A DNA stretch of 64,000 nt from a virus. The notes beneath the pieces were generated by a model. It was not told the origin of the DNA. It did no database searches and saw only the letters and a list, made by a program, of their open reading frames with translations. Both the position numbers and the translations under genes were made by a program. Below are positions 4,058 to 32,624 of the stretch, piece by piece. Numbering within the stretch: the first letter of the stretch is position 1; every line of letters starts with the position of its first letter. The DNA is taken from positions 1 to 64,000 of IMG/VR virus record IMGVR_UViG_3300018424_003600; one strand, 5' to 3'.

Positions 4058-5008
4058 ATGAAGGTATTATTAACAGGATCATCAGGATTTATTGGTCAAC
4101 ACTTAACTCCACGTTTAGAAAACGATCACACATTATATCACTTAAAGAGCGATCTATTAGATTTTGACAGTGTTCAACAAGAAGTTGATGCTATTAAACC
4201 AGACATCATTGTTCACTTAGCAGCTCGTACAGAAGTTGAAAATAGTTTTTACGAACAAATTACATTTAGTCAAATTAACTATGTAGGCACTGTGAATCTT
4301 ATCGAAGCTGCAAGCAAAGTTAAGAATTTAAAAAACTTTGTATTTGCCAGCACTATGGAAGTATACGGATGGCAACCTATAAGTGACGAAGTACGTGACA
4401 ACATTACACCTAAAAAGTTTATAGCATTTGACGAAAATACTACCCCTAATCCAAATGCTCCGTATGCTGTTGCAAAGTACGGTTGTGAAAAGTATCTAGA
4501 ATATGCACATAGAAGTTTAGGATTACCGTTTACTGCAATACGTCAAACTAATAGTTACGGACGCAAGGACAACGACTTCTTTGTAACAGAACAAATTATT
4601 ACACAAATGATTAAAAATCCTAATCGTATTGAACTAGGATATGCAGAACCATATCGTAACTTTATCTTTATTGACGATTTATTAGATGCTTGGTGTACAG
4701 TTATTAACAACCCTAGCAAAGTAAACAATGGTTATATTTTTACGATCGGTCCTGACAATCCTATTAAGATTAAAGATTATGTTGATATGATTGCCAATAA
4801 AATTGGTTGGACAGGTGAAGTTGTTTGGGATACCAAACCAATAAGACCTGGTGAAATTTATTGGCTAAACAGTAACCATAGGTTAATAACTAGTATCACT
4901 GGATGGGAACCTAAAGTAAGTTTAAGTGACGGTTTAGATTATACTATAAATGTATGGAAGAATTTATTAGGACAACAACCAATCAATAAGGTTATTCGTC
5001 TTAACTAA
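4058..5008 (+). CDS. NAD-dependent NDP-sugar epimerase/dehydratase (extended SDR)
   Basis: 'TGSSGFIG' Rossmann motif, 'HLAA', 'ASTMEVYG', YxxxK 'YAVAK', 'RNFIFIDD', 'GWEPK'. Confidence 0.9.
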   Translation: MKVLLTGSSGFIGQHLTPRLENDHTLYHLKSDLLDFDSVQQEVDAIKPDIIVHLAARTEVENSFYEQITFSQINYVGTVNLIEAASKVKNLKNFVFASTMEVYGWQPISDEVRDNITPKKFIAFDENTTPNPNAPYAVAKYGCEKYLEYAHRSLGLPFTAIRQTNSYGRKDNDFFVTEQIITQMIKNPNRIELGYAEPYRNFIFIDDLLDAWCTVINNPSKVNNGYIFTIGPDNPIKIKDYVDMIANKIGWTGEVVWDTKPIRPGEIYWLNSNHRLITSITGWEPKVSLSDGLDYTINVWKNLLGQQPINKVIRLN

Positions 5009-5761
5009 GTAATTAGACTTTAGTGTTGTATTATTCCACACAACGTTAGACAGATCTAAATACCCAGATTTGTTAATATTACTTTCTATAAAATCTGCTA
5101 GAATTTTATTGTTTTCATTTGTCATATGACAGTGTCTTAAATCAATATATTTTTTATAATCTTGGCTTTGTTTTTGTGTTGTATTCCAAGATTCTAACTC
5201 TAAATCATATACATGTTTTAAATCTGGATATGCATTTACAAAAATTGTATCCGGTCTAGCTAACTTAATACTATCAATTATTGCTTGTTTTAAAAGATTT
5301 TCTCGTTCTTCGTCTTTATGATAAACGTCTTTAAAAAAATTAGTTAAAGATTTAAAGTATTGTTTATCAGAATAATCTTTTGCAAATTCTATCTTTTCTA
5401 CAGCATCTTCATAAGAAGCACAATGTACCCAACCATTAAAGTTTGTACTATAACGAAACGGGCTTGTTATAGTAAAGATACACTTTTCATATTTTTTATG
5501 ATTATTAATAAATTGATTATAACTATAATATAAGTCACTACCACTTTGTCCATAAACATCTGCATCTAAATGTCTATGCCAGCCTATATATTTTTCTCCC
5601 CACTTAGATAAAACCATAGAGGAATCTTCTTTAGAATACTTACGTTTACAAACTTTATAAACTTCTCTTATAAATCCTTCAGCAGTAATGTGCCACTCTA
5701 AATGCGGATTTGCTGCAAAGCTGTCACCAAATATTGCTATTTTATTCACTAGGGTTTCCAA
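4967..5761 (-). CDS. SGNH/GDSL-like protein
   Basis: 'IAIFGDSF' block I, 'GQSGS' block II, C-terminal His ('RHCHM'); true start may be GTG at 5749. Confidence 0.55.
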   Translation of the reverse strand: METLVNKIAIFGDSFAANPHLEWHITAEGFIREVYKVCKRKYSKEDSSMVLSKWGEKYIGWHRHLDADVYGQSGSDLYYSYNQFINNHKKYEKCIFTITSPFRYSTNFNGWVHCASYEDAVEKIEFAKDYSDKQYFKSLTNFFKDVYHKDEERENLLKQAIIDSIKLARPDTIFVNAYPDLKHVYDLELESWNTTQKQSQDYKKYIDLRHCHMTNENNKILADFIESNINKSGYLDLSNVVWNNTTLKSNYLVKTNNLIDWLLS

Positions 5762-7227
5762 TTAAGTTTATTATCAATATATTTTCTTATAAATGCATCT
5801 GTATTAACTCTACCTTCAGGTCCGTCAAAAATTGCAACTGGTGTAGTTAGTCTTTCTTCAACTTCTTTGCCATGCATCGCATTAGTAGCAAGCATCCATA
5901 TATCTGTCATTAAGGGCTTATCTTCAAGACGTACAGACTTTGCAATGTCTAAAGCTTCGTCCATTGTCATATAGTCATTTTCCCAATTCACAGCATTTCT
6001 AGACGGATCTCTATCAATAGATTCTTGATAAGCTGATCCGTTTTCTACTTGGCGTTCTCTATATCCATACTTTTCCCAATTTAACGTAAACTCAGAAGTA
6101 TTTCCATAACTATGTCTATTAATTATTAACGGGTGTATAGATACATAAATTTCAGGAGGCAATGCATTAATCCATTTTATAGTTGATGCTATAGTTTCTT
6201 TTGTTTCATAAGGAAGACCAACTATAAAAGAAAGAGTTGCTGCATATAACTCACGACCATTATTATTAAAATAATTATAGATATCATAAAATCCTTGCTT
6301 AACTTTTTCAGGGTCCATTCCTTTTCCGATTGTTTTTCCGCTTTCGCGGTTAAGAGTTTCAATCCCATATGCATGACCTAGAAATCCCATTTGTAGTAAA
6401 AGTTCTTTATCTTGAGGTCTGCTTATAAGCAAGTCTCCTCGAATAAACCCGGCAAAAAAGGGATCAAAGTTTAGCTCTTGTACACCTTCTGCATACGTCC
6501 TTATTTTCTCTGTTGTTTCGTTAAATGTACTATCTGCAACAATATAATTTTTTACACCAAATCTGTCATAATTTTCTTTCATTTGAGTTACAAAGTCTTC
6601 CTTTGCAGCAATATAGTTTCCTTTAGCTTTTAAATAAGGAAAGTCACAAAATGAACATTTAAATTTACACCCTCTAGAAAATTCCATAGTAAGCCATTCG
6701 CCTTCTTGTATAAAATCTCTATCTTGATACTGTACTTCTAAATCTGTCATATAGCCTGCATGATGAGGACTATCTGTACTGTTAGCTAGTATAACTTTTT
6801 TATCTGTCCAGGGAAACTCTGTTTTTATTAAAGGCAATCCGTTGTTAAACAAATAGTCTAACAATTTTAGTATAGCATTTTCAGCATGTCCTACTATATA
6901 ATAATCAATGTAGTTTGCATCATAAGTAGGAAATCCTTGCATACCTGCTAAAAGGTATAGATGCGGATATGTGTCTTTAATCCATTTAGTAAATGCTTCT
7001 AGCTTTGGTGTCCAAAAAGTAAAAACTTGTCCAAAACCTATAAATTTAGTATTTGAATTGACTCTAGATCTAACTAATTCTTTTAGTTCTTCAAGTTCCC
7101 AACTAATAGTATAATCAATAACTTCAACATCCCAGTTATGATTTCTAAGGTGATGTGCAATCCTATAACAACCAAAACCTCTTATAATGTCGTCACTTGA
7201 AATGTTAAAAATTAAAGTATGATTCAT
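5749..7227 (-). CDS. cobalamin-dependent (class B-like) radical SAM enzyme
   Basis: 'SRGCKFKCSFC' CxxxCxxC, 'ADSTFN', 'YGIETLN...IGKG', 'FIVGLPYET'; N-terminal B12-binding-like region ('LRNHNWDVEVID', 'DYYIVGHAE'). Confidence 0.85.
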   Translation of the reverse strand: MNHTLIFNISSDDIIRGFGCYRIAHHLRNHNWDVEVIDYTISWELEELKELVRSRVNSNTKFIGFGQVFTFWTPKLEAFTKWIKDTYPHLYLLAGMQGFPTYDANYIDYYIVGHAENAILKLLDYLFNNGLPLIKTEFPWTDKKVILANSTDSPHHAGYMTDLEVQYQDRDFIQEGEWLTMEFSRGCKFKCSFCDFPYLKAKGNYIAAKEDFVTQMKENYDRFGVKNYIVADSTFNETTEKIRTYAEGVQELNFDPFFAGFIRGDLLISRPQDKELLLQMGFLGHAYGIETLNRESGKTIGKGMDPEKVKQGFYDIYNYFNNNGRELYAATLSFIVGLPYETKETIASTIKWINALPPEIYVSIHPLIINRHSYGNTSEFTLNWEKYGYRERQVENGSAYQESIDRDPSRNAVNWENDYMTMDEALDIAKSVRLEDKPLMTDIWMLATNAMHGKEVEERLTTPVAIFDGPEGRVNTDAFIRKYIDNKLNWKP

Positions 7228-7242
7228 GTATTATCTCTTTTA

Positions 7243-8301
7243 TTAATCAAAGTAGTTTTCTAAACTACCTTTACGTTTAACATCTAATGTATTACAGTGA
7301 AAACCACCACTCATACTACGTGCTTGTCTAGCAGGACAAGGGACACTTTCAATACCATACTTTTCTAGTATACGCATTAACGGTTCTTGATCCTTGTCAA
7401 TTACTACACAATTTTCATTAATACTTAGCAGATTCATCCCAATCCAAGGTGAGCAAGGGCTTACACCATTTGGCAAATTGCAATTGGGTGCAACTAGGTC
7501 GTCCATACCTACAAAAATCTTATCCCATTTTTCAAAAATCTTTGGATAATGATCTGGACTACAACGTTCTGCATTAAACATAACTAAGCCCGGACGTAGT
7601 GGAATAACTGTACTGTCAAAGTGTGCAAAGAAATAAAAGTCTTCTGCAAGATGCAAACGATATCCTCTAGGTTCTACAATAGTTTTTAACCATTCGTATC
7701 CTAGTATACTTCCTGTGTTACTGTGTTGGTACAACAAGTCTCTACCTAGTCTTACTACGTTAGGTGCTTCCCAAACAATTTCATTGTTACGCACCGTAGG
7801 GACACTTAAATCGTCAAATTGATATAAGTCGTCCTTTAGTATAGGTGAAGGACTTTTAATCCACTGTGTGCCTTCTTTCATTTGCTGATACAAATAATCA
7901 TAGTACACTCTAGTTTCATACTGCCTTGCTCTCATAGGACTGCTACATTCAATAATCATGTTATCTAACGGTAATAACAAATCTCTTGGGCAAAAGCTAT
8001 ACCAGCCAGTAGTAGTCCAGTCAGGTGAACTAAATTCTTTACTGTGATCAGTAGGAGTAGGACGATGTACTTTAATGCCTAACTTAGTTAGTGTGTCGGC
8101 CAAGATATCTAAATCTTCTTCTGCCTCTTCCATAATTTGTTTGTCATGTGGTCCTTCTAAGCCTACAAGTTCTTCTTCACTATAAGTAGCATAAGAAAAA
8201 CTACGAACACTCGGGTCCATTGTAGGTAGTACTGCACCCTTTGCTGTACCAACAAAAATCTCTTCTAATGGATCCCAATCATTGTTCGATTGTACTGCCA
8301 T
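7243..8301 (-). CDS. amidinotransferase (glycine/inosamine-phosphate amidinotransferase family)
   Basis: 'NDWDPLEEIFVG', 'CPRD', 'HFDST...LRPG', 'WIGMNLLS', catalytic 'GGFHCNT'; AAGGAG RBS. Confidence 0.9.
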   Translation of the reverse strand: MAVQSNNDWDPLEEIFVGTAKGAVLPTMDPSVRSFSYATYSEEELVGLEGPHDKQIMEEAEEDLDILADTLTKLGIKVHRPTPTDHSKEFSSPDWTTTGWYSFCPRDLLLPLDNMIIECSSPMRARQYETRVYYDYLYQQMKEGTQWIKSPSPILKDDLYQFDDLSVPTVRNNEIVWEAPNVVRLGRDLLYQHSNTGSILGYEWLKTIVEPRGYRLHLAEDFYFFAHFDSTVIPLRPGLVMFNAERCSPDHYPKIFEKWDKIFVGMDDLVAPNCNLPNGVSPCSPWIGMNLLSINENCVVIDKDQEPLMRILEKYGIESVPCPARQARSMSGGFHCNTLDVKRKGSLENYFD

Positions 8302-9178
8302 CTAAAACTCCTTTGTCTAAATAATTGTGGAAGCTAAGTCTGTTAGTGATACCTCCACGATTGTAATCGTTCCAAATTCCATTACCTAATCCAAAAAGGA
8401 CAGTAGAACTTGGTTCAGTATTTGTAAGATTACAAAATTTTATTTGTGTATCTTTATACTTGTTTACTATATAATCTGGTTCAAAATTTTTAATTAATTC
8501 TAAACCTAGTATTGCACCTAGTCTATTTTGATAGTTTGCTTTTTCATAAACAAATAATGTATCGTCATCATCTTTTCGTGTTAAACGCATACCAATTCGT
8601 GCGTGTGCAACAGGAAACATTTTACTCAAACTAAAAGTTATATCAGTAATACACTTATGAGTAAAATCAAATTCAAGTCCTGAACTAATTGTATAATATG
8701 CACAGTCTATTAGTACAGGAATACCTAATGCATCACAATTATGTAATATAAAATCCATTTGTTCATGTTTGTTTCCTGTGTCAGCAAAAGGATAACTTAT
8801 AATTACTGCATCGTTTTTATCAAGTTTAGTATCCTCAATATATGCCCAATCTAAATTGCTGTTTCGCCATGCAAGCTGATGGTACAAATATTCCGATTTA
8901 AAAATTCTAAACCGTCTGTTTAAATTTTTTAAATAAAATTTATCAAATGCTTCACTTGTGCCGTGCGAATAAACAGCATATTTGAATTCGTCTAGTCCTT
9001 TAAATGTATTAGGATGACGTTTAATCCATTCTAAATATTCTTTACAAAAAGTTCTGTTAATATCAACATCACCAAAGTTTTCTAAACTTATAGTTTTTAT
9101 AACATCTAGTACTGTGCTATCGTTTACAGCAGTAGAGTGTCCAAAAGGCAAATGTTTTTTATCATAAGTATAGCTCAT
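8279..9178 (-). CDS. PLP-dependent fold-type I enzyme (aminotransferase/decarboxylase-like)
   Basis: 'GTSEAFD', 'IDCAY' (DxAY), 'FSLSKMF....RIG' PLP-lysine motif; ATG 9178 overlaps the upstream stop. Confidence 0.7.
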   Translation of the reverse strand: MSYTYDKKHLPFGHSTAVNDSTVLDVIKTISLENFGDVDINRTFCKEYLEWIKRHPNTFKGLDEFKYAVYSHGTSEAFDKFYLKNLNRRFRIFKSEYLYHQLAWRNSNLDWAYIEDTKLDKNDAVIISYPFADTGNKHEQMDFILHNCDALGIPVLIDCAYYTISSGLEFDFTHKCITDITFSLSKMFPVAHARIGMRLTRKDDDDTLFVYEKANYQNRLGAILGLELIKNFEPDYIVNKYKDTQIKFCNLTNTEPSSTVLFGLGNGIWNDYNRGGITNRLSFHNYLDKGVLDGSTIEQ

Positions 9179-9696
9179 TCGTCTAACCACGTAATTTGCA
9201 TTACTACAAAATCTGTAAAACCAAAGTTACCAACACCGTGCCAAGCGTATGCACTCCAAGAATATGTGTCTCCTACACTCCATTTAGTATGTGTATCATT
9301 TTTTATTTGTAGTACTTGTCCGGGTTCCCAGTCTGTGAGCATTACAATAGTTCTATTGATATTTTCTGATTGTACTTCTGTAATGTTGTTATAACGCACA
9401 AAAGTAGAATAGCTATCATAATGCATCCAAAGATTGTAACCAGGGGTAAGTTTTAAAAAGTTATAATGATGTTTTTTATCTTTGAAAGGTTCTATGTAAG
9501 AAGTTAATGTATCATCTAGTGTTGGAGAGAACGCCATAAAATGTTTAGAACATTCTTTTGGCATGTTAAGATTACGATAGTGCGATTCTAAGTTTAATTT
9601 TTTTACCGTAGCAAAATTTTCCCAAACATCATCTGCAGGGACTTCGTCTATCATATATGTCTCTTGCCAGTCAAAGACTGAATAATCTATACTCAT
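9175..9696 (-). CDS. 2OG-Fe(II) oxygenase-like (AspH-like cupin) protein
   Basis: HxD 'WMHYD', distal His 'WHGVGN', 'W..G' beta-strands. Confidence 0.65.
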   Translation of the reverse strand: MSIDYSVFDWQETYMIDEVPADDVWENFATVKKLNLESHYRNLNMPKECSKHFMAFSPTLDDTLTSYIEPFKDKKHHYNFLKLTPGYNLWMHYDSYSTFVRYNNITEVQSENINRTIVMLTDWEPGQVLQIKNDTHTKWSVGDTYSWSAYAWHGVGNFGFTDFVVMQITWLDE

Positions 9697-10938
9697 TTAT
9701 AACTCTAAATTTTTTATTTGCTGCTTATTATATATCAGCAACGATTGCATGTCTTGCTGGATCCTGGCTAGTTCTTCATTGCTATATGCTGCAATAGTAT
9801 CTATAACATCAAAAATTTTATACATACGTTTTGTATGATCAAATTCATCATCATAGGATTCGTCCCAATAATTACCAAAAGTTTTGAAGCCCATATCTTT
9901 TGCAGTTTGCAGAGACTTTGGCGGTCCAACAATTACAAAAGGCATATGGTTAAAAATTGCAGATAAAGTTTTATCGCTTATGTAACTAGTAATATCTAAA
10001 AAACTTGATTCATTTACAATACTACAGAATGCATCAGAATATATTGTGTTTGGCATATCTGGCACATTATCAAATTCTGGTAACTTAAATCTATCTAAAA
10101 TGTTGCCTTCTAATACTGTAGGATTTTTAACATTAACATCTAACGACAAAGGAACTGTTTCATTTAATTTTTTAAAACCATTCAGTAGCTTGTTATTAGG
10201 TTCGAACCAAATATTTCTTTTAAAGTTTTCTTGTGTAGATTTATAACTCCAACTAATTTTAGAGTTATAATTTTTAAGATATGCTGCTATGATATGTCTA
10301 TAAGGTTCATATCTCCAATTTGAATTAACAAACGTATATTTTATTTTTTGTTTTTGTACAACAGATTTATCAATATTTTGTTTTATGTACTGCTGTAAAA
10401 ATAAATCTTTCCATGCAAACTTTAAATTTTTATATCTCAAAAATGCTTTTGAAACACCGTGTTCAGAAGTATAAACTGTTACGTTATTTAAATTGTTGTT
10501 ATTAACAAAATCTTGTATACTATCTAATTGTCCGCAGCGTGGATTATTAAAAATTCCTGCGTTTATGCCATTATCATTATTAAGTTGCAAAAAGTTTTGT
10601 TTTGCCCTTCTTGAATGATATACTCTATCACTATCGTATTTCATTAGATTTTCAGTTAAAAAAATGTGCAAACCTTGTTTGTTTAAAAAATCAACTGTTG
10701 AGCTATCGTATTTTAGAGTGTTGAATTGCACTGACTCAAACGTATTGTTAAACATCATATAAGGAACATTTATATTTCCTAATAACTCTATATAATTTTT
10801 AAAGTCTTGTATCTTAGGAGAATAGAAATGTTCTTCGCCGCTATCGTAATCAGCTAATAACACACGACTACAGTCTTCCAATATTAAACATGAGGTTCCA
10901 TTGAAATTTTCTAATAAAATTATTCTATCAGATTTCAT
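9697..10938 (-). CDS. putative glycosyltransferase (GT-B-like), paralog of 27110..28366
   Basis: C-terminal 'SIVNES.F...ISDKT...I....PFVIVG......GFKTF..YWDESYD' motif resembling the GT10/exostosin-type nucleotide-binding half. Confidence 0.5.
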   Translation of the reverse strand: MKSDRIILLENFNGTSCLILEDCSRVLLADYDSGEEHFYSPKIQDFKNYIELLGNINVPYMMFNNTFESVQFNTLKYDSSTVDFLNKQGLHIFLTENLMKYDSDRVYHSRRAKQNFLQLNNDNGINAGIFNNPRCGQLDSIQDFVNNNNLNNVTVYTSEHGVSKAFLRYKNLKFAWKDLFLQQYIKQNIDKSVVQKQKIKYTFVNSNWRYEPYRHIIAAYLKNYNSKISWSYKSTQENFKRNIWFEPNNKLLNGFKKLNETVPLSLDVNVKNPTVLEGNILDRFKLPEFDNVPDMPNTIYSDAFCSIVNESSFLDITSYISDKTLSAIFNHMPFVIVGPPKSLQTAKDMGFKTFGNYWDESYDDEFDHTKRMYKIFDVIDTIAAYSNEELARIQQDMQSLLIYNKQQIKNLEL

Positions 10939-11428
10939 TAACAATGCCTGTAACTTGTAAAGTATATCTATTGTGCATACCTAAATTTATAGCACTGTGA
11001 GGTGTTTCACCTTGCCAAGATTTAACGTTGCCCGATTTCCAATTTGTAAAACAGTCGTTGTTTACAACTAGCATATGCCCTGGTACACTATCTTCTAAAA
11101 ATATGACGTAGCGTTTTATGTTGTTTAAATCTGTAACATTATATTTTTTAGAATAAAATCCATATTTGTCTTGATGTACTGGAAGATAGTTACCAGGAAC
11201 TAATCGATGTATTGCAATGCCAATATGTTTAAGATTAGGAAAATAAGATTTAACTGTTTCTGTAAATTCATTGGTATACGACAATTGATATACATCAATT
11301 GTTAATTTTTCTAAATCGTGTCCACTGTTTTTCCAATGTTCAACTTGATTAGGATCTTTGAAATGTTCAGTAGTATAGTTGAGTTTTTTATAGAAATCAT
11401 TCCAAAAAGGTTCAATATGCACAGTCAT
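10928..11428 (-). CDS. 2OG-Fe(II) oxygenase-like protein
   Basis: 'LPVHQD', 'HSAINLG...RYTLQ' (HxD...H...R). Confidence 0.7.
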   Translation of the reverse strand: MTVHIEPFWNDFYKKLNYTTEHFKDPNQVEHWKNSGHDLEKLTIDVYQLSYTNEFTETVKSYFPNLKHIGIAIHRLVPGNYLPVHQDKYGFYSKKYNVTDLNNIKRYVIFLEDSVPGHMLVVNNDCFTNWKSGNVKSWQGETPHSAINLGMHNRYTLQVTGIVNEI

Positions 11429-11432
11429 AACG

Positions 11433-11462
11433 TATTTATAACCCTACTTTATATCATAAATA
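11433..11462. promoter_or_regulatory. back-to-back late promoters: TATAAATA (minus, 11433-11440) and TAAATA (plus, 11457-11462)
   Basis: Each motif lies 4 nt before the ATG of one of two divergent genes. Confidence 0.6.
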
Positions 11463-11466
11463 TGTT

Positions 11467-14044: not shown

Positions 14045-14047
14045 ATA

Positions 14048-14068
14048 ACTACTTATGCGGTAAGTAGT
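14048..14068. promoter_or_regulatory. divergent late-promoter variants (TAAGTA on both strands) forming a perfect 8-bp inverted repeat
   Basis: actactta-tgcgg-taagtagt; each TAAGTA is 5 nt before a divergent ATG (14044, 14072). Confidence 0.55.
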
Positions 14069-14071
14069 AGT

Positions 14072-23818: not shown

Positions 23819-23820
23819 GT

Positions 23821-25047: not shown

Positions 25048-25091
25048 ATTTTTTCCTCTTATATTTTTATAGTTATCTAAGTATTTTTAAT

Positions 25092-25832
25092 TTATTTTAG
25101 ATTGTGAAGAATTTGTTGTGTCCAAAGATCAATACCTTTCCTAGAAGGATGGTTATCTGTATCATATCCAAATACATCTCCTTGAAATTTGCGTTGTAAT
25201 CTTAGTTTTTGTCCAGAACCTGTGATTACTACACTATTATCTTGGCTGTACGTTGGTATTGATTTTTCGTAATCATAAGTTGCTGAAAAAATACTGCTCT
25301 TATAACTAGGATCTCTTAGTAGGTTATAAAACGACTCACACAAAACATTCAAATAAGGATATTGTTTTGTTAAACTTAAATCAATGTCGCTACATCCGCC
25401 AATTAAATTTATTTTAGTTTTATATGTTTTTCCGATTTCGTTTAAGTTATAGTAAAAAAGATCTATTAAAGTTTTATTAAATTCTTTATAATTGCCATTT
25501 TTAAATATGTGACTAAAATTAGCTGTATTATGATTTATCTTAGATATAACACTTCTCATTGGTTCTGTTTGTATTACTAATATACAAGTTTTAGGTTTTC
25601 TAAAAGATTTTACAGTGTAAGATTCTAATACACCTCTTAAGGATTCTAATATAAATTCATTACTTACGCCGCCTTGAGAAAAATTTTCAATTTCTGAAAA
25701 ATATTCTAATAGTTTTTCGCTGAAATAATTGTCGCCATTGTCGATAAAAGATCCGTCAGGCGTTGTCCAAGCGCCTCTACCCCAGCTGTCTCCAAAAATT
25801 AAAGCTCTGTGATACTTTGATGCTTTCCACAT
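25092..25832 (-). CDS. SGNH/GDSL-like protein
   Basis: 'IFGDSWG', 'N.SQGGVSN', C-terminal 'DNHP'. Confidence 0.6.
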   Translation of the reverse strand: MWKASKYHRALIFGDSWGRGAWTTPDGSFIDNGDNYFSEKLLEYFSEIENFSQGGVSNEFILESLRGVLESYTVKSFRKPKTCILVIQTEPMRSVISKINHNTANFSHIFKNGNYKEFNKTLIDLFYYNLNEIGKTYKTKINLIGGCSDIDLSLTKQYPYLNVLCESFYNLLRDPSYKSSIFSATYDYEKSIPTYSQDNSVVITGSGQKLRLQRKFQGDVFGYDTDNHPSRKGIDLWTQQILHNLK

Positions 25833-27106
25833 TATATTAACTCATAAATTTCTGGAAATTTAACAGGACGCATATTGTCTAAGGTTTTTAAATAATCAAG
25901 TGTTTGGTCTAACTTATCACTCCAGTCTTCACTATTCATAAAATCTATTAATCCGCTCCATTGTTGTACTTCGCTGTTGTCTGGATATTTTGCCATAAAG
26001 TTTCTTAACTTTTCTTCTACTCGTTTTTTTGATTCAGCAGATAAAACCTTTGTACAAAGATATTGAGGCCAATGTAGTGTAGCAGCGTGAAATAGTCCGT
26101 TACGTCTTGTTCTTTTTCCTATTTTTTTAAAGTTTTGCGACCAAAGCCATTCAGCAAATTCTGGTAGCCAATAGATGTTAAGTGCCTGAACAGTAGTGTT
26201 AATGTCTACAATAATGTCGCCGCCAGTAGTATTATCAAATGTTTTTAAATTCTTTACTACTTCATCCCACTTTGAAGGATATCTAATATAAGAATTTAAA
26301 TCTTCGTGCGCATCTAAACTTACCATAATGTGTGTTTTCTTAAAGTGAGTCCAAAGCTCTAACAATTCTTCGTCTACAACAGTGGCATTTGTATGATAAC
26401 GTATTTCTACATTTTTAGCATGATCAATTTCTACAAGATATTTTATTAAGTCTTTGTGTTGTTTAATTAGTAGAGGCTCTCCTCCTGCAAAAATAAGATC
26501 TCTAATATTATGTACATCTTTATAAAAGCTATCCCAAAACGCTTGGTTTCTATACCATTCGAACTGTTCAACAACAATATTACTTTTATGTTCCCAATCC
26601 CACTTAGCTTCACTAGTTAAATTTTTTGCAAGTATTTTAGAATGATTAAGCCATTTACTGCTATCATGTGGTCTACACATTATACACTGTAAATTACAAG
26701 TATTGCCTAATCTAAAATCAACACTAACAATGCCGCTATCTATAGAACCGTCTTCATTTGTTTCTGCAACAATTTGTCTTAGTTCATTTATTTTTATAGG
26801 GCTCCATTGATTTGCCCAAACATCGTTTTCGTTCTGTCTATGACTTCTGACTCCAGCAGCTTCTTCTTTATAACAACTATTACAGTACTTGACAGGTTCA
26901 TTGTTGAGCATCTTTTTGCGAACTTCTTTGTATTGCGGACTATTCCAAATTTCTTCCCAAGTCATATTATTAAGATTTAATTCGTGTATAGGAGAAGCAA
27001 CACAACATAGTTGCACTGCGCCGTTTGTTTGTGTTGCACAATGTATCCACGGCATTATACAAAATTTTTCTGTGGATTTTAATCTATCAAAAAGTGGTTT
27101 TGTCAT
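25832..27106 (-). CDS. radical SAM enzyme with N-terminal twitch/SPASM-like domain
   Basis: 'CNLQCIMC', 'FAGGEP', 'YHTNA', 'SLDA...YIRYP'; N-terminal 'CIMPW...NG..QLCC...CNSC'; close paralog of 19130..20509. Confidence 0.9.
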   Translation of the reverse strand: MTKPLFDRLKSTEKFCIMPWIHCATQTNGAVQLCCVASPIHELNLNNMTWEEIWNSPQYKEVRKKMLNNEPVKYCNSCYKEEAAGVRSHRQNENDVWANQWSPIKINELRQIVAETNEDGSIDSGIVSVDFRLGNTCNLQCIMCRPHDSSKWLNHSKILAKNLTSEAKWDWEHKSNIVVEQFEWYRNQAFWDSFYKDVHNIRDLIFAGGEPLLIKQHKDLIKYLVEIDHAKNVEIRYHTNATVVDEELLELWTHFKKTHIMVSLDAHEDLNSYIRYPSKWDEVVKNLKTFDNTTGGDIIVDINTTVQALNIYWLPEFAEWLWSQNFKKIGKRTRRNGLFHAATLHWPQYLCTKVLSAESKKRVEEKLRNFMAKYPDNSEVQQWSGLIDFMNSEDWSDKLDQTLDYLKTLDNMRPVKFPEIYELI

Positions 27107-27109
27107 TAT

Positions 27110-28366
27110 CTATTCCATAAGTGCATTCATTAAATCTTCTTTGAGATTTTTATATATTGTAACATCGTGTCTTTCTTTTAGCAATCTATAATTATGTTCA
27201 AATATAGGTTTCATTTCTATCATAAGTTTGTTTAATTCTTCATGAGTCCTGCTTATAAAAGTGTTTATACTAGTAATAGCCATTTTTAGTCTTGTTTTAT
27301 CGTCTAGTACATCGTCGTAGGATTCGTCTATATAGTCTCCAAATGTTTTATAGCCTAACTCTTTAAGTAATTTTACTGTTCCAGGGCGAGCAATTGCAAC
27401 AAAAGGTTGCATAAAAACAATAGGCTTAAACATTTTTTCACTTAAAAATAAAGTATCTTGTCCTTGAGCTTTGTTTTCAAAAAATGTTTCTGTTACAATA
27501 TACAAATAACTATCATAATATTTTCTTATTTTTCCCCATTCGTTTGATGCAGGATTTTGAACTTCAGGATTTATTCCATCATTGTATGTTAACGGAATTA
27601 ACGGCTTTACTTCGTTGATATATTTTTCTTTTAGATCTGGATAGTCTTGGTAAAAACAATCTTCAACCCAATCAGTATAATCTTTGCCGTATCCTGCAGA
27701 CTTAGCACAGGTTAAAATTCCTTGTTTTTTTACATCAAATAAACTCGTTACTGTTGCATATCTATGTATCGAAGGTCTTCTATTTAAACATATAAATTTA
27801 TGTGTTCGAGGACGCTCTACAGCATTCATAAATGTGTTATAGTGTGTATCTCCGTTATAGTTTCCGTATATTTGCCGTTCCCAAGTATTAAAAGTTACTG
27901 TTTTTACAGTAGGATGAGGATTATAATTTCCTGATAAAAAAACAACATGTTTTTCTTTTAGGTCATATTTAGATTTTAATATGTCTAAAAGACTATCCCA
28001 CCAAGTCCATGTCCATCCTTCAAATGGACAAAGAAGCAATATTTTACAATTACCTTTTTTAATTTGTTCAATAATTTCAGGTTCTATCTCAACTTGATCA
28101 AATACAGTTTCTATTGACCAAAGACTAAGTGGTATTGGATAATAAAATTTTGGTGCTTTTTTTGTAAACTTATTACGCTTGGGTATTTTAGAAATAGGTT
28201 TATAAACAAGTTCAAAATCATTACCAAACACTGCATAAAGATGTGTTGTGTCTACTAAATCCACTTGAGGATTAGCTGTATGCTTCCGGTATAACTTTTT
28301 AGTAAATCCGTTAACATAAGGAAGTTTATTTTTTCGAGGTTTTATGTCTACATAAATTGGAATCAT
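27110..28366 (-). CDS. putative glycosyltransferase (GT-B-like)
   Basis: 'FICLNRR...HR', 'IVTET.F', 'FLSEK.FKPI...QPF', 'LGYKTF..YIDESYD'. Confidence 0.5.
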   Translation of the reverse strand: MIPIYVDIKPRKNKLPYVNGFTKKLYRKHTANPQVDLVDTTHLYAVFGNDFELVYKPISKIPKRNKFTKKAPKFYYPIPLSLWSIETVFDQVEIEPEIIEQIKKGNCKILLLCPFEGWTWTWWDSLLDILKSKYDLKEKHVVFLSGNYNPHPTVKTVTFNTWERQIYGNYNGDTHYNTFMNAVERPRTHKFICLNRRPSIHRYATVTSLFDVKKQGILTCAKSAGYGKDYTDWVEDCFYQDYPDLKEKYINEVKPLIPLTYNDGINPEVQNPASNEWGKIRKYYDSYLYIVTETFFENKAQGQDTLFLSEKMFKPIVFMQPFVAIARPGTVKLLKELGYKTFGDYIDESYDDVLDDKTRLKMAITSINTFISRTHEELNKLMIEMKPIFEHNYRLLKERHDVTIYKNLKEDLMNALME

Positions 28367-28367
28367 A

Positions 28368-29297
28368 TTACAACTTTTCTATAAATCTTTGATGGTCTGT
28401 TCTAGCAGGATGTTCATATACTTCTTTAAAAAATTTACTTTGATCTTTATCAAGTGGTGCTGCTGCTATAGGTAATTTGAGCTCACTTACTAGTTGCTGT
28501 CCTAATACTACAGTTTCTTCTAATAATGTATCATTGGTGATTTTCTTTGAAACAGTATTATCCCAATAATTATTAAGATATTCAAAGTCACGAACATTAA
28601 CATAATCCCAGTCTGTACACATAGTTTTATATAACCCTTCTCTAGCACCATATATAGCCCAAAGCCCGTTAGTAACATCAGAACCTACCATACTCCAAAT
28701 GTACAGCCAATGTAGGCAACGCCAATGATTATTTTTAAATTCTTCTTTAGCAATTCTTACACCACGATCAGTGGCAAGTTTTACTCCTTCTCTAAATCCT
28801 GCTCTCCAAGCCTGTGCAGGTGTTTCATTATTATATACATCAGAATATGTACTGTTCATTTGTATGTAATGAGCGTCCCAACAAAAGTCTACTTGGGCAT
28901 GAGCATTATTTGGATCTGCATTTTCATGAGTACGCATACGTAAAACATATTGTTTAGGCCAACATTTAAGTCCACCATTGCCATAACGCAACCCGTTGAT
29001 TTCGTTTCTGCCGCACCAACTTATTACAGCATTTTCTAAATCCATGTGTTCGTTAAAATCAATTTCTTGGTTTAAAAAATCTTCCCTAATCCTATTGTCG
29101 CCGTCAACAGTAATAAACCGCTCAGTTTCTGATAATTCAGCACAAGCCTTGTGTGCAGCATCTGAACCTTTTACTCCGTGTACACGCTTTGCCCAGGGCA
29201 CTTTTGAACACAAGTCTGCGTAATTTTTTTCTGCATTTGGTTCATCATAACTTAGATAAATTATGTCGTAGTCAATAGGTTTAAAAATTTTTGACAT
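28368..29297 (-). CDS. putative glycosyltransferase (GT-A-like, DxD)
   Basis: 'YDIIYLSYDEP', 'GVKGSDAAH', 'VDGD', 'YGNGGLK', 'AWRAGFREGVKL'. Confidence 0.6.
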   Translation of the reverse strand: MSKIFKPIDYDIIYLSYDEPNAEKNYADLCSKVPWAKRVHGVKGSDAAHKACAELSETERFITVDGDNRIREDFLNQEIDFNEHMDLENAVISWCGRNEINGLRYGNGGLKCWPKQYVLRMRTHENADPNNAHAQVDFCWDAHYIQMNSTYSDVYNNETPAQAWRAGFREGVKLATDRGVRIAKEEFKNNHWRCLHWLYIWSMVGSDVTNGLWAIYGAREGLYKTMCTDWDYVNVRDFEYLNNYWDNTVSKKITNDTLLEETVVLGQQLVSELKLPIAAAPLDKDQSKFFKEVYEHPARTDHQRFIEKL

Positions 29298-30601
29298 TAC
29301 TCAAGTACCTCATGTGTATAATGATTAAAATACTTTGATGTATATACGCTTACTTCATCAGTTTCATAGTCTGATTCAAAATCAAAAGAAACTGTAGATT
29401 CCAATATTTCTTTTAGTTTAAAAGACAAACTTCTATACAAAACATTAGGATTGCTAGGAGAAGTTACACTAAAATAAAGCATAGAATTAGAATTAGCAAA
29501 TGAAGTTTTTAAAAACTTTTTAGTTAATGGATGAAGTGCAATGTTCCACTTTTTGTTTATTTTATTTTGTGTTAGTACAATATCTACATCTATAGCCGAC
29601 TGTATTCTATATAATTGTCTTTCTAATAAAACTAAACTTCCGTTTTTAAGTTCTTCAATGTTTGTAAATTTAACATTATCTTTTAAATTTTCCCCGTGTA
29701 CAATATTGTTGTTAGAGGTATAATAAAATTGTGTTATTCTATCAGTTGAGTAATTTTCAAATTCAGTAGTGCTATCTTTTTCGACAAACATATAAAGACT
29801 ATTATTATCTAAAAATAGTTCATAATTATCAACATTTTCAAATTCTAAGTCTTTGTTTTCGTCATCATATAACTTTACATTTTTTTCGACTAAAGTAGCA
29901 TTGTTTGTTCTAAACTTACTACCTTTGCGTTGATTCTTTTTAATTTTATAAACTTTGTTGTTTATAAAAATATGCTGACCTTCGTAGTGTTCAACATCGT
30001 CGTACCAAACATCAACATTTACTCCTACATACTGCTGTTCTTTAACAATCATTTTACCAGTATTAATTTCGTGCGTAGGTGTAGGTACGTCTGGAATATA
30101 TACATCTTTAATATATATTCTACTGATATTTTCTAAACTAGAAGCAGCCTTTACATCTACATTTAAAATGTAAACATTATTGTCAAACCATACAAAATTA
30201 CCTTTGTTATATTTTTCTCCTTGTTTCCAAATAAAAACATCAATACCTTTATACTCTTTTATAAACTTGTATAACGGATTTATATTTGAAAACTCAATCT
30301 TAGGAAGTTCGTAACAAAAATTACCAAGAGAATTTGCTGCTAGTTCAGCATTTATTTTTTTCAAACGAGTTTGCTTTTCGACTATGTCGTAAATTACTGT
30401 ATATTCGTCAATATTTGACTCACCATTTAAAATAGGTTTAGCATCATATATAGGAACAGCTAGTACATCATATTCGCTATCTTCTTTTGTGCCACTAACT
30501 TTGTGTATTTTTCCAGTTGCTTGGTCATAATACACATATGCATCATTTGATGCTGCTTTTACTTTTAAATTAGTTATTAGTTCAGCTAGATTAGACGCCA
30601 T
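29297..30601 (-). CDS. hypothetical protein with two CBM5/12-like aromatic repeats
   Basis: 434-aa ORF; repeats 'YKGIDVFIWKQGEKYNKGNFVWFDNNVY' and 'YVGVNVDVWYDDVEHYEGQHIFINNKVY'. Confidence 0.55.
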   Translation of the reverse strand: MASNLAELITNLKVKAASNDAYVYYDQATGKIHKVSGTKEDSEYDVLAVPIYDAKPILNGESNIDEYTVIYDIVEKQTRLKKINAELAANSLGNFCYELPKIEFSNINPLYKFIKEYKGIDVFIWKQGEKYNKGNFVWFDNNVYILNVDVKAASSLENISRIYIKDVYIPDVPTPTHEINTGKMIVKEQQYVGVNVDVWYDDVEHYEGQHIFINNKVYKIKKNQRKGSKFRTNNATLVEKNVKLYDDENKDLEFENVDNYELFLDNNSLYMFVEKDSTTEFENYSTDRITQFYYTSNNNIVHGENLKDNVKFTNIEELKNGSLVLLERQLYRIQSAIDVDIVLTQNKINKKWNIALHPLTKKFLKTSFANSNSMLYFSVTSPSNPNVLYRSLSFKLKEILESTVSFDFESDYETDEVSVYTSKYFNHYTHEVLE

Positions 30602-31433
30602 TATAACTCCTATAACTTTTTAAAACCGGTGTTTTTTCAATAAAACTATTTTCTGTATAATGAAAAATTCCTGATTGTATATAGTTGCCTATTTGTAATT
30701 CGCAGTTTTCTGTCGTATATACTGGTATCTTATCTTGCCAACTTGATTTAACTTGTTCCCATCCTTGACAATATGGTTTCATATGTACAAATGTTGGAAA
30801 ACTAGTTTTAGAATTTGTGATTTCAGTTTCACAGTCTAAAATTTTAGTAACAATTGCTGCACAAACATCGATACTTACATGTTTGGGTCTAGTTTCTGGT
30901 GTAAGATTTTTTTCGTAAAATGCTTCCCAGTTTTGTATTACAAGTTCTAGCCATGTATAAAATTCTTGTGCAAAATCTGATTTTTTAAAGTAATGAAATC
31001 CTGCAAACAAATTAGGCAAATTATTATCAATAAATGTTTTTCTATAATAACTAGTGTTTGCAGTGTTTCCTCTATAGTCTAGTACTTTGTTTGTAAAAAA
31101 TAGCTCATAGTTCGATAAGAAGTCCCACCATCTATCAATGTTTTGTAAAACTAGCATATCAGTATCCATTACAATAGTTTCATCATATGGACTAGCATGA
31201 TAGATTTTCCAACGATTTTCTACTTTCCATTCACTTTCTTCAGCAGCGTCTCCAAAAGGGATCGGAATAATGTTATCAAAAAACTTTTGGTAATTTAAAG
31301 GAACATCGTCATCAGTAATAACTGAAATTTTAGTTTCTTTATTGTGTGTTTGTAAACTCATTGCTAACAAACATGCTTGCATTACATAATCTGTTTCGCC
31401 GTTTTGTGCTAGAACAACTATACCTTTACTCAT
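30591..31433 (-). CDS. putative glycosyltransferase (GT8/mannosyltransferase-like, DxD)
   Basis: 'KG..V.A.N...DY', 'SPYDETIVMDTD', 'HMKP', 'FHY'. Confidence 0.65.
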   Translation of the reverse strand: MSKGIVVLAQNGETDYVMQACLLAMSLQTHNKETKISVITDDDVPLNYQKFFDNIIPIPFGDAAEESEWKVENRWKIYHASPYDETIVMDTDMLVLQNIDRWWDFLSNYELFFTNKVLDYRGNTANTSYYRKTFIDNNLPNLFAGFHYFKKSDFAQEFYTWLELVIQNWEAFYEKNLTPETRPKHVSIDVCAAIVTKILDCETEITNSKTSFPTFVHMKPYCQGWEQVKSSWQDKIPVYTTENCELQIGNYIQSGIFHYTENSFIEKTPVLKSYRSYNGV

Positions 31434-32281
31434 AGAGGTACCTCATCAATAATTCTACCTAAACTAAATTTATTCATTACATGAATGTTTTGTCCTTTGG
31501 TTTTGATTGCAGTGTATTCTCCTAAATAATCTTTCTTTTCAACTAAAAACATCATTTCGTCATCTTGTAGTTTCCAAAGGATATCTTTGTCGGTTGTGTA
31601 AAGCATAGAACCCGGTAACTGAGATGCAAAACTTCCTGATTCAAAACCATTCATAATATGAATAGCAATACTAAATGCAAAGTCATTTCTAAAAAGTGAA
31701 GAATTAATTTGGTATGTTCGTTTGTAATGTGTCCATTCTTGCTCTATGTGTTGTACTAAATCAAAGAATATTTTATTAGTTGGTGTTTTTCTAAAAAACA
31801 CAACAGTTGCCCAATAAAAATCTACACTAGAATCAGTAATGTATTTGAATTCATTTTCATTTCTAACTTTTGCTATATCATTAGAATTTTTATAAAGAGC
31901 AAAATCTACATCTAGATCAAATACATTTGATAACATATTGTTAGACACAACATAATCAGTGTCCATTATAATAGTTTCGTCATAAGGAGAAAGTTCGTAG
32001 ACACTTGCACGATTACTATTCTTAAAACTTGCAGTTCTTTGAGACATAGCACCATCATGGAACAGCCTAGAGTTTGTTCCATCTGTCCAATCTAGTTCAA
32101 TTACAGTATCAAATATACTAGAATCAAAAGAACCTTTTAAATAGTCAACGCAATCTGTTGCTACTGTAGTAGGTAAATTTAAATATTTTTTTATTCTTTT
32201 TGCTAAAAAAACAGCCTGCTTAACATAGTCAATTTGTGAATTATTTTTGGCTATTAAAAATACACCTTTAGTCTTGCTCAT
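31430..32281 (-). CDS. putative glycosyltransferase (GT8/mannosyltransferase-like, DxD), paralog of 30591..31433
   Basis: 'KGV..IA.N....DY', 'SPYDETIIMDTD', 'RNDFAFS', 'HVMNK'. Confidence 0.65.
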   Translation of the reverse strand: MSKTKGVFLIAKNNSQIDYVKQAVFLAKRIKKYLNLPTTVATDCVDYLKGSFDSSIFDTVIELDWTDGTNSRLFHDGAMSQRTASFKNSNRASVYELSPYDETIIMDTDYVVSNNMLSNVFDLDVDFALYKNSNDIAKVRNENEFKYITDSSVDFYWATVVFFRKTPTNKIFFDLVQHIEQEWTHYKRTYQINSSLFRNDFAFSIAIHIMNGFESGSFASQLPGSMLYTTDKDILWKLQDDEMMFLVEKKDYLGEYTAIKTKGQNIHVMNKFSLGRIIDEVPL

Positions 32282-32624
32282 ATCCTACTAATTTTTCCAC
32301 TTTTCTATTTTTCTTAAGATTACTATATTCTGAATAATAATCGTTAGATGCACTAGAATACTTTTCAACAATTTCTTCTAAAAAATCTTCTAAGTTATCA
32401 ATAGAAGCAGGCAAGCCGTTGTCGTCAATTAATACCGTTGTATCTTGTCCTAGATTCAACATTGTACTACAAAAGGTTATAAGTTCTCTAGTTATGGTAA
32501 ATTGACAGCCGCTAAAAAAATGTATCAAATCGTCATTGTATTTTTCTTTGAGGAGACGCTTTTGATTGTTGAGTGTAGTCATATAGTTGGAAAAGTCAAG
32601 TGCTTTTTCTAAACGTTCATCCAT
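32268..32624 (-). CDS. hypothetical protein, first gene of the glycosyltransferase operon
   Basis: 118-aa ORF with CAGGAG RBS. Confidence 0.7.
   Translation of the reverse strand: MDERLEKALDFSNYMTTLNNQKRLLKEKYNDDLIHFFSGCQFTITRELITFCSTMLNLGQDTTVLIDDNGLPASIDNLEDFLEEIVEKYSSASNDYYSEYSNLKKNRKVEKLVGYEQD

Follow-up and report, generated by a model that had tools for sequence, protein, structure and literature searches.

A radical SAM- and glycosyltransferase-rich island beside the fibre genes of an uncultured jumbo myovirus: a candidate source of a tailored glycoconjugate

Phage islands that combine radical S-adenosylmethionine (SAM) enzymes with sugar-related genes have been published more than once, as uncharacterised loci. 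The Campylobacter phages CP220 and CPt10 pair radical SAM genes with a putative glycine amidinotransferase, in a module described as interchangeable and without a known function (Timms et al. 2010, PMC2853527). The host recognition clusters (HRCs) of pelagimyophages and cyanomyophages are likewise uncharacterised (Zaragoza-Solas et al. 2020, PMC7029224), and the authors who described S-SCSM2R call homologues in that phage “antibiotic synthesis genes” (2025, PMC12801897). An island of this type occupies positions 4058-32624 of the stretch of viral DNA analysed here, the window, which is the first 64 kb of the linear 75,652-bp IMG/VR record IMGVR_UViG_3300018424_003600, a record without a terminal repeat. 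Its 32 genes (g01 to g32, from left to right) include eight for radical SAM enzymes, two for nucleotide-sugar enzymes, six for glycosyltransferases and one for an amidinotransferase related to that of streptomycin biosynthesis, and on balance the island is likely to yield a tailored glycoconjugate. What is new is not the island type but the split between a conserved core and variable modules, the presence of two predicted promoter classes, and a cultured phage, RsoM2USA, that carries a minimal version. A preliminary description of the window had regarded the gene combination as unreported; that was too strong, since CP220/CPt10, the HRCs and S-SCSM2R show such sets. The window island is among the largest and most complete versions.

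Like the window, the genomes of CP220 and CPt10 are those of myoviruses in which radical SAM genes, an amidinotransferase and sugar-transferase genes form an island by the baseplate genes. Their island has five radical SAM genes, the amidinotransferase and two genes of the nucleotide-diphospho-sugar-transferase fold. It is smaller (10-12 genes), its amidinotransferase is 26% identical to g04 of the window, and it has no match to the N-terminal-twitch radical SAM enzymes above E 1e-5, no annotated pair of a dehydrogenase and a short-chain dehydrogenase/reductase (SDR), and no pair resembling glycosyltransferase family 8 (GT8). The HRCs are large hypervariable islands within the structural region and combine fibres, glycosyltransferases, a UDP-glucose 6-dehydrogenase and radical SAM cassettes; in the window, too, fibres flank the island on both sides and content is variable past g28. 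The HRCs, however, lie between VrlC and gp14 in T4-like genomes of the Tevenvirinae type, whereas the backbone of the window is Rak2/Atu_ph07/XacN1-like and its load of radical SAM, oxygenase and amidinotransferase genes is far heavier. CP220 and S-SCSM2R join radical SAM, amidinotransferase, 2-oxoglutarate (2OG) oxygenase and glycosyltransferase genes independently of each other. Virus-directed glycosylation has demonstrated targets in the PBCV-1 capsid, the Mimivirus fibril and the capsid and tail tube of mycobacteriophages, which are O-glycosylated. These systems resemble the window in their virus-borne sugar-nucleotide enzymes and glycosyltransferases, but we know of no radical SAM enzyme and no amidinotransferase in any of them. 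A paper on marine phage proteomics held no data on phage glycosylation.

Judged by its sequence, the contig covers about 20% of the genome of a jumbo myovirus that is uncultured and Rak2/XacN1-like (CheckV completeness 20%). The baseplate wedge protein matches phrog_10646 (E 2.4e-297); the cultured phages that match it best, at 35-37% identity, are jumbo myoviruses with genomes of 337-490 kb, namely Phosso, Atu_ph07, SCTP-2, RaK2 and jumbo phages of Erwinia and Salmonella. The jumbo-phage premise of the preliminary description holds because of these matches and because complete relatives in IMG/VR reach 345 and 364 kb (estimated completeness 99-100%). The flanks are also as first described: to the left lies a fibre gene at 2920, and the right-hand side has T4-type tail parts, namely the baseplate wedge, a gp25-like gene, a hub/lysozyme and several fibre proteins. 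Between them the count of about 32 contiguous genes was borne out by 32 open reading frames (ORFs) that overlap or abut; the sole gaps measure about 39, 28 and 45 nt, and non-coding DNA within the island totals about 110 nt. No island protein (0 of 32) contains a 19-residue window with a mean hydropathy above 1.55, the strength of a transmembrane segment, and all products are taken to be soluble and cytoplasmic. When 24 kb of the island was compared with 50,697 phage records by megablast, no match was found.

The amidinotransferase g04 (7243-8301, minus strand) matches StrB1, the L-arginine:inosamine-phosphate amidinotransferase of Streptomyces griseus (1bwd), over its full length. The alignment spans residues 3-350 (E 4.1e-84) and is the best anywhere in the PDB; SxtG, AGAT and HsvA follow at E ~1e-53 to 1e-57. 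The reference catalytic triad of StrB1 is C332, H227 and D179. Of these the Cys and His are kept, as Cys336 and His227, and are invariant in 40 phage homologues, whereas at the position of Asp179 g04 has Glu and 23 of the 40 have Asp. By its full-length homology g04 belongs to the StrB1/AGAT amidinotransferase family, which has the pentein fold, and the initial assignment stands. The surroundings of g04 differ from those of StrB1 in having no cyclitol-forming enzyme, and an amino sugar or a sugar nucleotide is the more likely acceptor. Because one island joins a StrB1-type amidinotransferase with nucleotide-sugar enzymes and six glycosyltransferase folds, a tailored and probably guanidino-bearing sugar is a reasonable product. 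The adjacent g05 (8279-9190, minus) is a probable fold-type-I aminotransferase dependent on pyridoxal phosphate (PLP), HisC/CobD-like and with an SLSK...ARIG motif; its matches to Aminotran_1_2 (E 0.003) and NF006967 (E 2e-5) fall below cut-off. It accompanies g04 in 48 of 52 loci families.

The kinship of g04 with a streptomycin enzyme, its best PDB match (E 4e-84), would also suit a diffusible small molecule. In that case g04, the PLP enzyme, the kinase-like proteins, the radical SAM enzymes and a few of the glycosyltransferases would produce a pseudo-oligosaccharide, aminoglycoside-like or guanidino in nature, whose targets would be the host or competing organisms. To our knowledge all characterised amidinotransferases use small-molecule amines, and aminoglycosides are tailored by twitch and B12 radical SAM enzymes such as BtrN and GenK. 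The label given to the S-SCSM2R homologues (PMC12801897) points in the same direction. Such a product nevertheless seems improbable: none of the 32 proteins matches, in Pfam or NCBIfam, a cyclitol-forming enzyme (inositol-phosphate synthase or 2-deoxy-scyllo-inosose synthase), and none matches an exporter or a gene for self-resistance, and the kinase-like proteins have no conserved catalytic Asp. Six glycosyltransferases and a conserved linkage to fibres would be unexpected for a product of this sort.

Both nucleotide-sugar enzymes named in the preliminary description have Pfam matches. The protein encoded by g01 (4058-5008, plus strand) is an extended-SDR NDP-sugar epimerase or 4,6-dehydratase (PF01370, 134 bits; PF16363, 127 bits), whose nearest NCBIfam models, LegB and RmlB, are each under cut-off. 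The product of g24 (23821-25047, minus) is a nucleotide-sugar 6-dehydrogenase of the UDP-Glc/GDP-Man group (PF03721, 65 bits; PF00984, 61 bits); its TIGR03026 score of 154 bits lies under the cut-off of 189.8. The claim of six glycosyltransferase-like genes was checked at the level of fold because no library model matches those genes. Pfam, NCBIfam and PHROGs returned no match for g02, g07, g15, g20, g23, g25, g27, g28, g29 or g31, and in sequence searches of the PDB neither g27, g28 and g29 nor the profiles A1, A2 and A5 had a meaningful match. Matches of profile A1 to TAL effectors were rejected as spurious. By fold or profile, all six are glycosyltransferases: g07 and g27 of the GT-B type, g23 and g28 of the GT-A type, and g30 and g31 GT8-like.

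The GT-B enzyme g27 (27110-28366, minus) represents an unannotated viral family. Its AlphaFold model, built on 47 homologues, has a predicted local distance difference test (pLDDT) score of 94, and all of its top 50 VIA-align matches are glycosyltransferases. The highest Z scores are those of T4 beta-glucosyltransferase (BGT, 11.3), alpha-1,3-fucosyltransferases (10.9 and 10.8), exostosins (10.8) and T4 alpha-glucosyltransferase (10.0); relatives in BFVD reach a TM score of 0.70. It matches no curated family in Pfam, NCBIfam or PHROGs, and 170 homologues are without a Pfam domain. The GT-B call for g07 (9697-10944, minus) is based solely on the homology of its C-terminal half to g27 (32% identity over 115 aa, E 1e-15; g07 aligns within profile A1). 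In an uncultured phage protein, BFVD A0A6J5TB28, a g27-like GT-B domain is fused to a UDP-Glc/GDP-Man dehydrogenase domain.

The position of T4 BGT at the head of the g27 list (11.3, with the T4 alpha enzyme at 10.0) raises the possibility that the island decorates modified bases of the phage genome and so serves restriction evasion. A QueC-like PP-loop gene, g14, is present, and radical SAM, PLP and kinase genes occur in thymidine hypermodification clusters. This reading is disfavoured and considered very improbable. The T4 Z scores tie with those of fucosyltransferases and exostosins, and the nearest BFVD relatives of g27 are not DNA glucosyltransferases of the T4 type. The complete relatives G002 and G003, which have amidinotransferase/radical SAM modules, lack both a hydroxymethylase of the thymidylate-synthase family (PF00303) and a PF01702 tRNA-guanine transglycosylase (TGT/DpdA), in searches whose controls were positive in 10 of 14 genomes and in all 14, respectively, the window genome itself being 20% complete. 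The control for a search with Tet_JBP (PF12851) gave no signal.

The GT-A pair comprises g23 (23135-23818, minus) and its paralogue g28 (28368-29297, minus; 32.5% identity). The g23 model (pLDDT 88) shows a GT-A-fold glycosyltransferase-like protein with a DxD motif, D57xD59, that is invariant. VIA-align Z scores are 11.4 for B4GALNT1, 10.0 for WrtF, 9.5 for SunS and 8.8 for PBCV-1 A64R, and the best Foldseek matches are ppGalNAc-T, WrtF and SunS. The range of Z from 11.4 to 8.2 covers both GT-A enzymes and nucleotidyltransferases of the same fold. A sugar-phosphate nucleotidyltransferase was considered for g23 and rejected: the fold is common to both, but g23 has the DxD motif and a GT2-like N terminus and has no GGxGxR. 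At one related locus (L076:9045-10586) g28-like and g23-like GT-A domains form a single protein. The paralogues g30 (30591-31433, minus) and g31 (31430-32281, minus) are GT8-like, that is, glycogenin-like, GT-A glycosyltransferases. Their shared profile, A6, matches glycogenin-1 with E 4.6e-7 over residues 13-104, and D90xD92 is invariant; neither protein has a Pfam match, Glyco_transf_8 included. Homologues of g30 number more than 1000, the best 120 at 64-86% identity. Between the two pairs lies g29 (29297-30601, minus), which holds a conserved slot and is 29-37% identical in syntenic loci. It is unassigned: it has no match in Pfam, PHROGs or the PDB, and a glycosyltransferase identity could not be established for it, as the Atlas model is poor (pLDDT 0.50), the structural neighbours do not rise above chance (0.77) and the search turned up no viral loci.

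Eight radical SAM genes had been counted, and all eight score above the PF04055 cut-off (35.5-48.7 bits against 29.5) with CX3CX2C intact. Three encode N-terminal-twitch enzymes of NF033640 (N_Twi_rSAM; cut-off 170 bits): g16 (16006-17274, plus; 327.2 bits), g19 (19130-20509, minus; 387.5 bits) and g26 (25832-27106, minus; 373.7 bits). The other five, at 29-44 bits, are non-members. NF033640 is a catalogued family for which we know of no substrate. Its architecture is “permuted”: a four-Cys twitch-like domain precedes the CX3CX2C core, as in g16, which has an N-terminal Cys cluster plus CX3CX2C. The Pfam SPASM model matches these enzymes near the N terminus (residues 9-69 and 16-79), and 19 sequences all keep C20, C38, C95, C98, C153, C157 and C160. 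Alongside these three copies the island has four radical SAM proteins with C-terminal Cys clusters. Three are short and mutually paralogous, g17 (17258-18178, plus; PF04055 39.6 bits), g18 (18156-19133, minus; 48.7 bits) and g21 (21101-22138, minus; 47.8 bits); in the fourth, g22 (22105-23151, minus; 44.5 bits), the cluster is SPASM/twitch-like and weak matches are to BlsE and a tungsten-cofactor maturase. The eighth, g03 (5749-7227, minus; 44.4 bits), has its CX3CX2C at residue 187 and a weak B12-binding match, suggestive of a methylase-like enzyme of the B12-binding type; its best NCBIfam matches, to the PhpK, HpnJ and BzaD classes, are all far under cut-off. Literature searches for “N-terminal twitch”, or for Bdellovibrio with radical SAM and phage, found nothing relevant.

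The nearest cellular relatives of the N-terminal-twitch enzymes, at up to 49% identity, are overwhelmingly from metagenome-assembled genomes (MAGs) of Bdellovibrionota. Homologues of g19 occur in 36 IMG/VR loci and 78 cellular loci, the latter mostly of this phylum. In each of five Bdellovibrionota genomes there are 17-39 N-terminal-twitch matches; 14 control genomes yielded none over cut-off. Many of the genes form tandem arrays, six to eight in a row, often with a g21-like radical SAM gene at the end and a g05-like PLP enzyme; g21 homologues beside such arrays are 42-53% identical. A 1.9-Mb Bdellovibrionales chromosome (G006) has arrays of six to nine, at C1:792375-803016 and 1068646-1092743 (loci L134, L102 and L097). 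A contig of a Bacteriovoracaceae MAG interleaves homologues of g19, g20, g21, g22, g28 and g05 with two bona fide GT2 genes, and carries a PP-loop protein, an Asp/Arg-hydroxylase-like protein and a flavoprotein resembling amine oxidase and UDP-galactopyranose mutase. Wzx (PF01943) was sought in the five Bdellovibrionota genomes and had no match on cluster-bearing contigs.

Bdellovibrionota arrays of six to eight N-terminal-twitch paralogues that are without the phage glycosyltransferase families fit a different reading, in which the radical SAM and HxD...H enzymes act directly on amino-acid side chains of a fibre or another protein or peptide, by hydroxylation, cross-linking or epimerisation, and sugars are added later or never. 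Most SPASM/twitch radical SAM enzymes serve in peptide maturation, and the weak NCBIfam neighbours in the window are maturases of RiPPs, peptides made by the ribosome and modified after translation. Asp/Asn-hydroxylase-like proteins recur in such islands, and POGLUT1 is among the structural neighbours of g27. This reading too has little probability. The gaps of about 110 nt in all leave no room for a precursor-peptide gene, overlapping small ORFs not being excluded; no RiPP recognition element or leader-peptidase match was found; and the nucleotide-sugar enzymes and an amidinotransferase of small-molecule type are integral to the island.

A tblastn comparison of all window proteins with about 115 IMG/VR loci reveals that the island, best described as of HRC type, is a composite of modules with separate histories and not a single fixed pathway. 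In 34 loci the order is invariant from the fibre genes (homologues of those at 43793, 41724, 39776, 38251 and 37291) through g32, g31, g30 and g29 to g28. Identities in this fibre-proximal block are 58-92% (g28 71-92%, g30 58-72%), g29 being lower at 29-37%. The first gene of the block, g32 (32268-32624, minus), encodes an unassigned small acidic protein that is 58-68% identical in the 34 loci and 36% identical in RsoM2USA. Past g28 the content differs at each locus, with N-terminal-twitch radical SAM, g27-like, g24, g01 and g23 genes in varying order. The sequence comparisons define a conserved core of g32-g28 together with an N-terminal-twitch radical SAM enzyme, the GT-A protein g23 and g20, shared by 34 relatives and by RsoM2USA. 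The radical SAM block g16-g23 occurs together in about 35 loci, and the amidinotransferase module (g04, g05 and the small HxD...H proteins) in about 45; in the window's own lineage this module adjoins the Mtd_N fibre gene and a DUF2201 gene. In four relatives (G001-G004), two of them complete genomes, the wedge and fibre genes have the GT8-like pair downstream of them. Synteny with tail genes across related jumbo phages, which the preliminary description had put forward as a test, held for the fibre-proximal block; the radical SAM and amidinotransferase modules vary between relatives and can lie elsewhere.

RsoM2USA (MG752970), a cultured Ralstonia jumbo phage, has the same order of fibre, g32, g31, g30, a small ORF, g28, N-terminal-twitch radical SAM, g23 and g20. 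Its cassette, ORF354-347, is minimal (about 6 kb, one radical SAM gene) and is without the amidinotransferase module, the dehydrogenase and the GT-B genes of the window; identities are 23-44% and every gene is annotated as hypothetical. Just upstream of the cassette, ORF361, ORF359 and ORF356 are virion proteins confirmed by mass spectrometry (MS) (PMC8504454). Related islands also contain genes for a flavin-dependent tryptophan halogenase and a fatty-acid desaturase, each in nine of them (L053:7806-9365; L061:19246-20016), and a PrnA-like gene lies near the S-SCSM2R cluster. Asp/Asn-hydroxylase-like proteins are recurrent in the related islands.

Several tailoring functions of the preliminary description (2OG oxygenases, PLP enzyme, QueC-like protein, kinases, SGNH proteins, methyltransferase) are called from motifs or weak matches. 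The five candidate 2OG/Fe(II) oxygenases are assigned at motif level or from weak matches. Of these, g06 (9175-9696, minus), g08 (10928-11428, minus; first gene of a leftward unit) and g11 (12684-13232, plus) are paralogous small HxD...H proteins in which H, D and H are invariant across 78 unique members; g08 is 39% identical to an annotated 2OG oxygenase beside the amidinotransferase of S-SCSM2R. The fourth, g09 (11467-12150, plus), has a weak Asp/Arg-hydroxylase match (PF05118, 18.2 bits; cut-off 22.6). The fifth, g12 (13229-14044, minus), belongs to a separate family in which H178, D180 and H237 are invariant in 12 homologues, and it has no match in the PDB or Pfam. The probable PP-loop ATP-pyrophosphatase-like protein g14 (14761-15441, plus), of the QueC/TilS/NAD-synthase class, has an SGGADS motif and sub-cut-off matches to QueC (19.9 bits against 22) and TilS_N (E 0.003). 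Two paralogues, g10 (12137-12691, plus) and g13 (14072-14764, plus), resemble the kinase fold; their family profile matches TTK/Bud32 at E ~1e-3, no Asp is invariant, and g10 has no catalytic Asp.

Three proteins are SGNH-like. Of these, g15 (15429-16016, plus) and g25 (25092-25832, minus; FGDS block) are related to each other (hhalign 82%, E 1e-5, in an alignment that pairs blocks I and II), and none of 25 homologues of g25 has a Pfam domain. The third, g02 (4967-5761, minus), is SGNH-like by motif only, an N-terminal FGDS block; it has no family match and aligns with g15 and g25 only over the motif. The core member g20 (20509-21111, minus) is methyltransferase-like by motif only, again without a family match, and is present in 31 loci families and in RsoM2USA.

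Predicted signals of expression also divide the island. The late promoter of T4 is TATAAATA. A predicted divergent pair of this type (TATAAATA / ATAAATA) lies at 11433-11462, where TATAAATA is 5 nt upstream of the start of g08 and ATAAATA just 5' of g09. The contig contains 12 copies of ATAAATA, of which 7 fall within intergenic DNA, 1.46% of its length; these face the fibre gene at 2920, the gene for a 1498-aa protein, the fibre gene at 38251, the wedge gene, the gene at 71478, g08 and g09. The full octamer TATAAATA is not enriched across the window (5 found, 14.7 expected), and the evidence for the late motif consists of the positional test of ATAAATA in intergenic DNA. Late expression of the g08 and g09 units is predicted because the motif is analogous to the T4 late promoter. 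Upstream of g32, at 32698-32726 on the minus strand, lies a sigma-70-like promoter, TTGACA-17-TATTAT, the best-scoring site in 23000-40000. It falls in the 105-nt gap between the fibre gene and g32. In about 19 distinct relatives TTGACA-N17-TATACT is kept although the bases around it have diverged. Scans for sigma-70 promoters and terminators were at chance level overall, and the g32 site alone was retained, for its conservation. In the 27-nt divergent gap between g12 and g13 (14042-14074), TAAGTA stands 5 nt before each start codon; the two mRNAs may be leaderless, since the gap has no room for a ribosome-binding site.

Because the predicted promoter classes differ, simple co-expression of the whole island is argued against. 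A single-operon view was accordingly rejected: the modules differ in conservation, in predicted promoter type and in genome position. The one indivisible 28-kb pathway of the preliminary description must be given up on the same grounds, including the placement of modules in a complete relative.

The glycosyltransferases may act outside the virion. Remodelling of the host envelope would have the island supply unusual nucleotide sugars and the soluble enzymes act, during infection, on lipid-linked precursors of host lipopolysaccharide (LPS), capsule or S-layer; through an altered cell surface the effect could be superinfection exclusion, or progeny could be kept from adsorbing to debris. This is the published reading of the pelagimyophage and cyanomyophage HRCs, in which GT8 is named as an LPS family (PMC7029224). 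The GT8-like character of g30 and g31 is consistent with it, as are a conserved sigma-70-like promoter before the glycosyltransferase block, which fits early expression, and an island content as hypervariable as that of O-antigen loci. We place this reading second, as a close rival of a virion target, though it is less likely than not. No island protein (0 of 32) has a transmembrane segment or matches, in Pfam, an initiating phosphoglycosyl transferase, a flippase, a polymerase, a ligase or a transporter. The glycosyltransferase block is, moreover, highly conserved across phages with differing fibres and very different hosts, and occurs in a Ralstonia phage, so a phage-intrinsic acceptor fits better than host-specific glycans.

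For the island's own chemistry we infer the following steps and their order. Nucleotide sugars would be made and oxidised by g24, the SDR protein g01 and the HxD...H oxygenase-like proteins, and the PLP enzyme g05 would transaminate a keto group. Transfer of an amidino group from arginine by g04 would then convert the amine to a guanidino group. The B12-type radical SAM protein g03 could C-methylate the sugar and the methyltransferase-like g20 could methylate it, the PP-loop protein g14 may amidate, and the SGNH-like g02, g15 and g25 may acylate or deacylate. Radical dehydrogenation, epimerisation or deoxygenation would fall to the seven twitch/SPASM-type radical SAM enzymes, and g07, g27, g23, g28, g30 and g31 would put the sugars onto the acceptor. 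Links among the parts favour such a sugar pathway: the two gene fusions (g27-like GT-B with a dehydrogenase domain, g28-like with g23-like), the GT2 genes among radical SAM homologues in the Bacteriovoracaceae contig, and the independent combinations in CP220 and S-SCSM2R. The families and folds of these proteins, their solubility, and the synteny and modular conservation of their genes are observed; the scheme built on them, acceptor included, is what we infer.

As acceptor we tentatively favour the phage's own fibre or other virion proteins, without giving this choice an even chance. A fibre target is slightly preferred because of the lineage-wide synteny with fibres, the solubility of all products, a neighbouring protein with 31% Ser and Thr, and the precedents in other viruses. 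Also counted for a virion target are the fibre-first gene order, the MS-confirmed neighbours in RsoM2USA, the position of the GT8 pair downstream of baseplate and fibre genes, and the occurrence of ATAAATA before structural genes and before g08 and g09. A number of observations weigh against the glycosylation scheme or its virion target. The “virion hyper-glycosylation” of the preliminary description found no direct support. The promoter of the fibre-proximal glycosyltransferase block is sigma-70-like and not of late type, which suggests transcription by host RNA polymerase, probably early. In the complete relative G002 a distance of about 90 kb separates the amidinotransferase/radical SAM module and the fibre-proximal glycosyltransferase pair, and fibre adjacency is therefore not obligatory for that module. 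Most Bdellovibrionota arrays are without the phage glycosyltransferase families, so the radical SAM chemistry is not tied to those particular transferases. The structural neighbours of g27 include the DNA glucosyltransferases of T4, tied with fucosyltransferases, and many calls (2OG, SGNH, methyltransferase, kinase-like) are at motif level.

The flanks of the island contain further genes. On the left, the fibre protein at 2920-3999 (plus) has an Mtd_N domain (PF18454, 33.2 bits) and is syntenic with module A in several relatives. In Bordetella phage BPP-1, Mtd (major tropism determinant) is a target of a diversity-generating retroelement. Directly 3' of this gene a 14-pair hairpin followed by a T-run (4023-4053, plus) ends 5 nt before the start of g01, and is likely to be a terminator dividing the fibre gene from the island. 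Farther left a DUF2201 metallopeptidase/VWA-like protein (56-1381, plus) is conserved (L033:15614-16705), and in relatives a MoxR-type AAA ATPase gene lies near it, which suggests a CobT/MoxR-VWA-like pair. On the right, the 1498-aa fibre-like protein (32730-37226, minus) is 31% Ser plus Thr and has a weak immunoglobulin (Ig) match; in relatives its slot holds a paralogue of the fibre protein at 37291. A single ORF of 5153 aa (44416-59877, minus) sits between the fibre genes and the baseplate wedge, and the corresponding region of RsoM2USA is ORF361 (>288 kDa), a virion protein confirmed by MS (PMC8504454). Past the structural module, where the contig ends, there is a gene for an SbcC-like nuclease subunit (73397-75169, plus; L001:13397-15169; phrog_77, E 4e-103).

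Iron-sulfur chemistry, which is oxygen-sensitive, rarely takes up as much of a phage contig as it does here, a third of 75 kb. A streptomycin-type amidinotransferase and six glycosyltransferases, in company with eight radical SAM enzymes and sugar-nucleotide enzymes, point to a glycan chemistry outside any characterised pathway known to us. More speculatively, N-terminal-twitch radical SAM enzymes and the StrB1-type amidinotransferase could, together with phage-specific glycosyltransferases, produce a radical-edited, guanidino-bearing glycan of a new class, carried on the host-recognition fibres of a whole jumbo-phage lineage, with the related radical SAM arrays of the predatory Bdellovibrionota doing a comparable job on the surface structures of those bacteria; as a whole this is doubtful. 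The question can be taken to the bench because three cultured phages have reduced versions of the island: RsoM2USA (ORF347-354), CP220 (gp080-089) and S-SCSM2R (ORF301-310). The identity of the product would give a function to NF033640, a large orphan enzyme family, and could show how phages recognise hosts, cloak themselves or control superinfection at a level not seen before.

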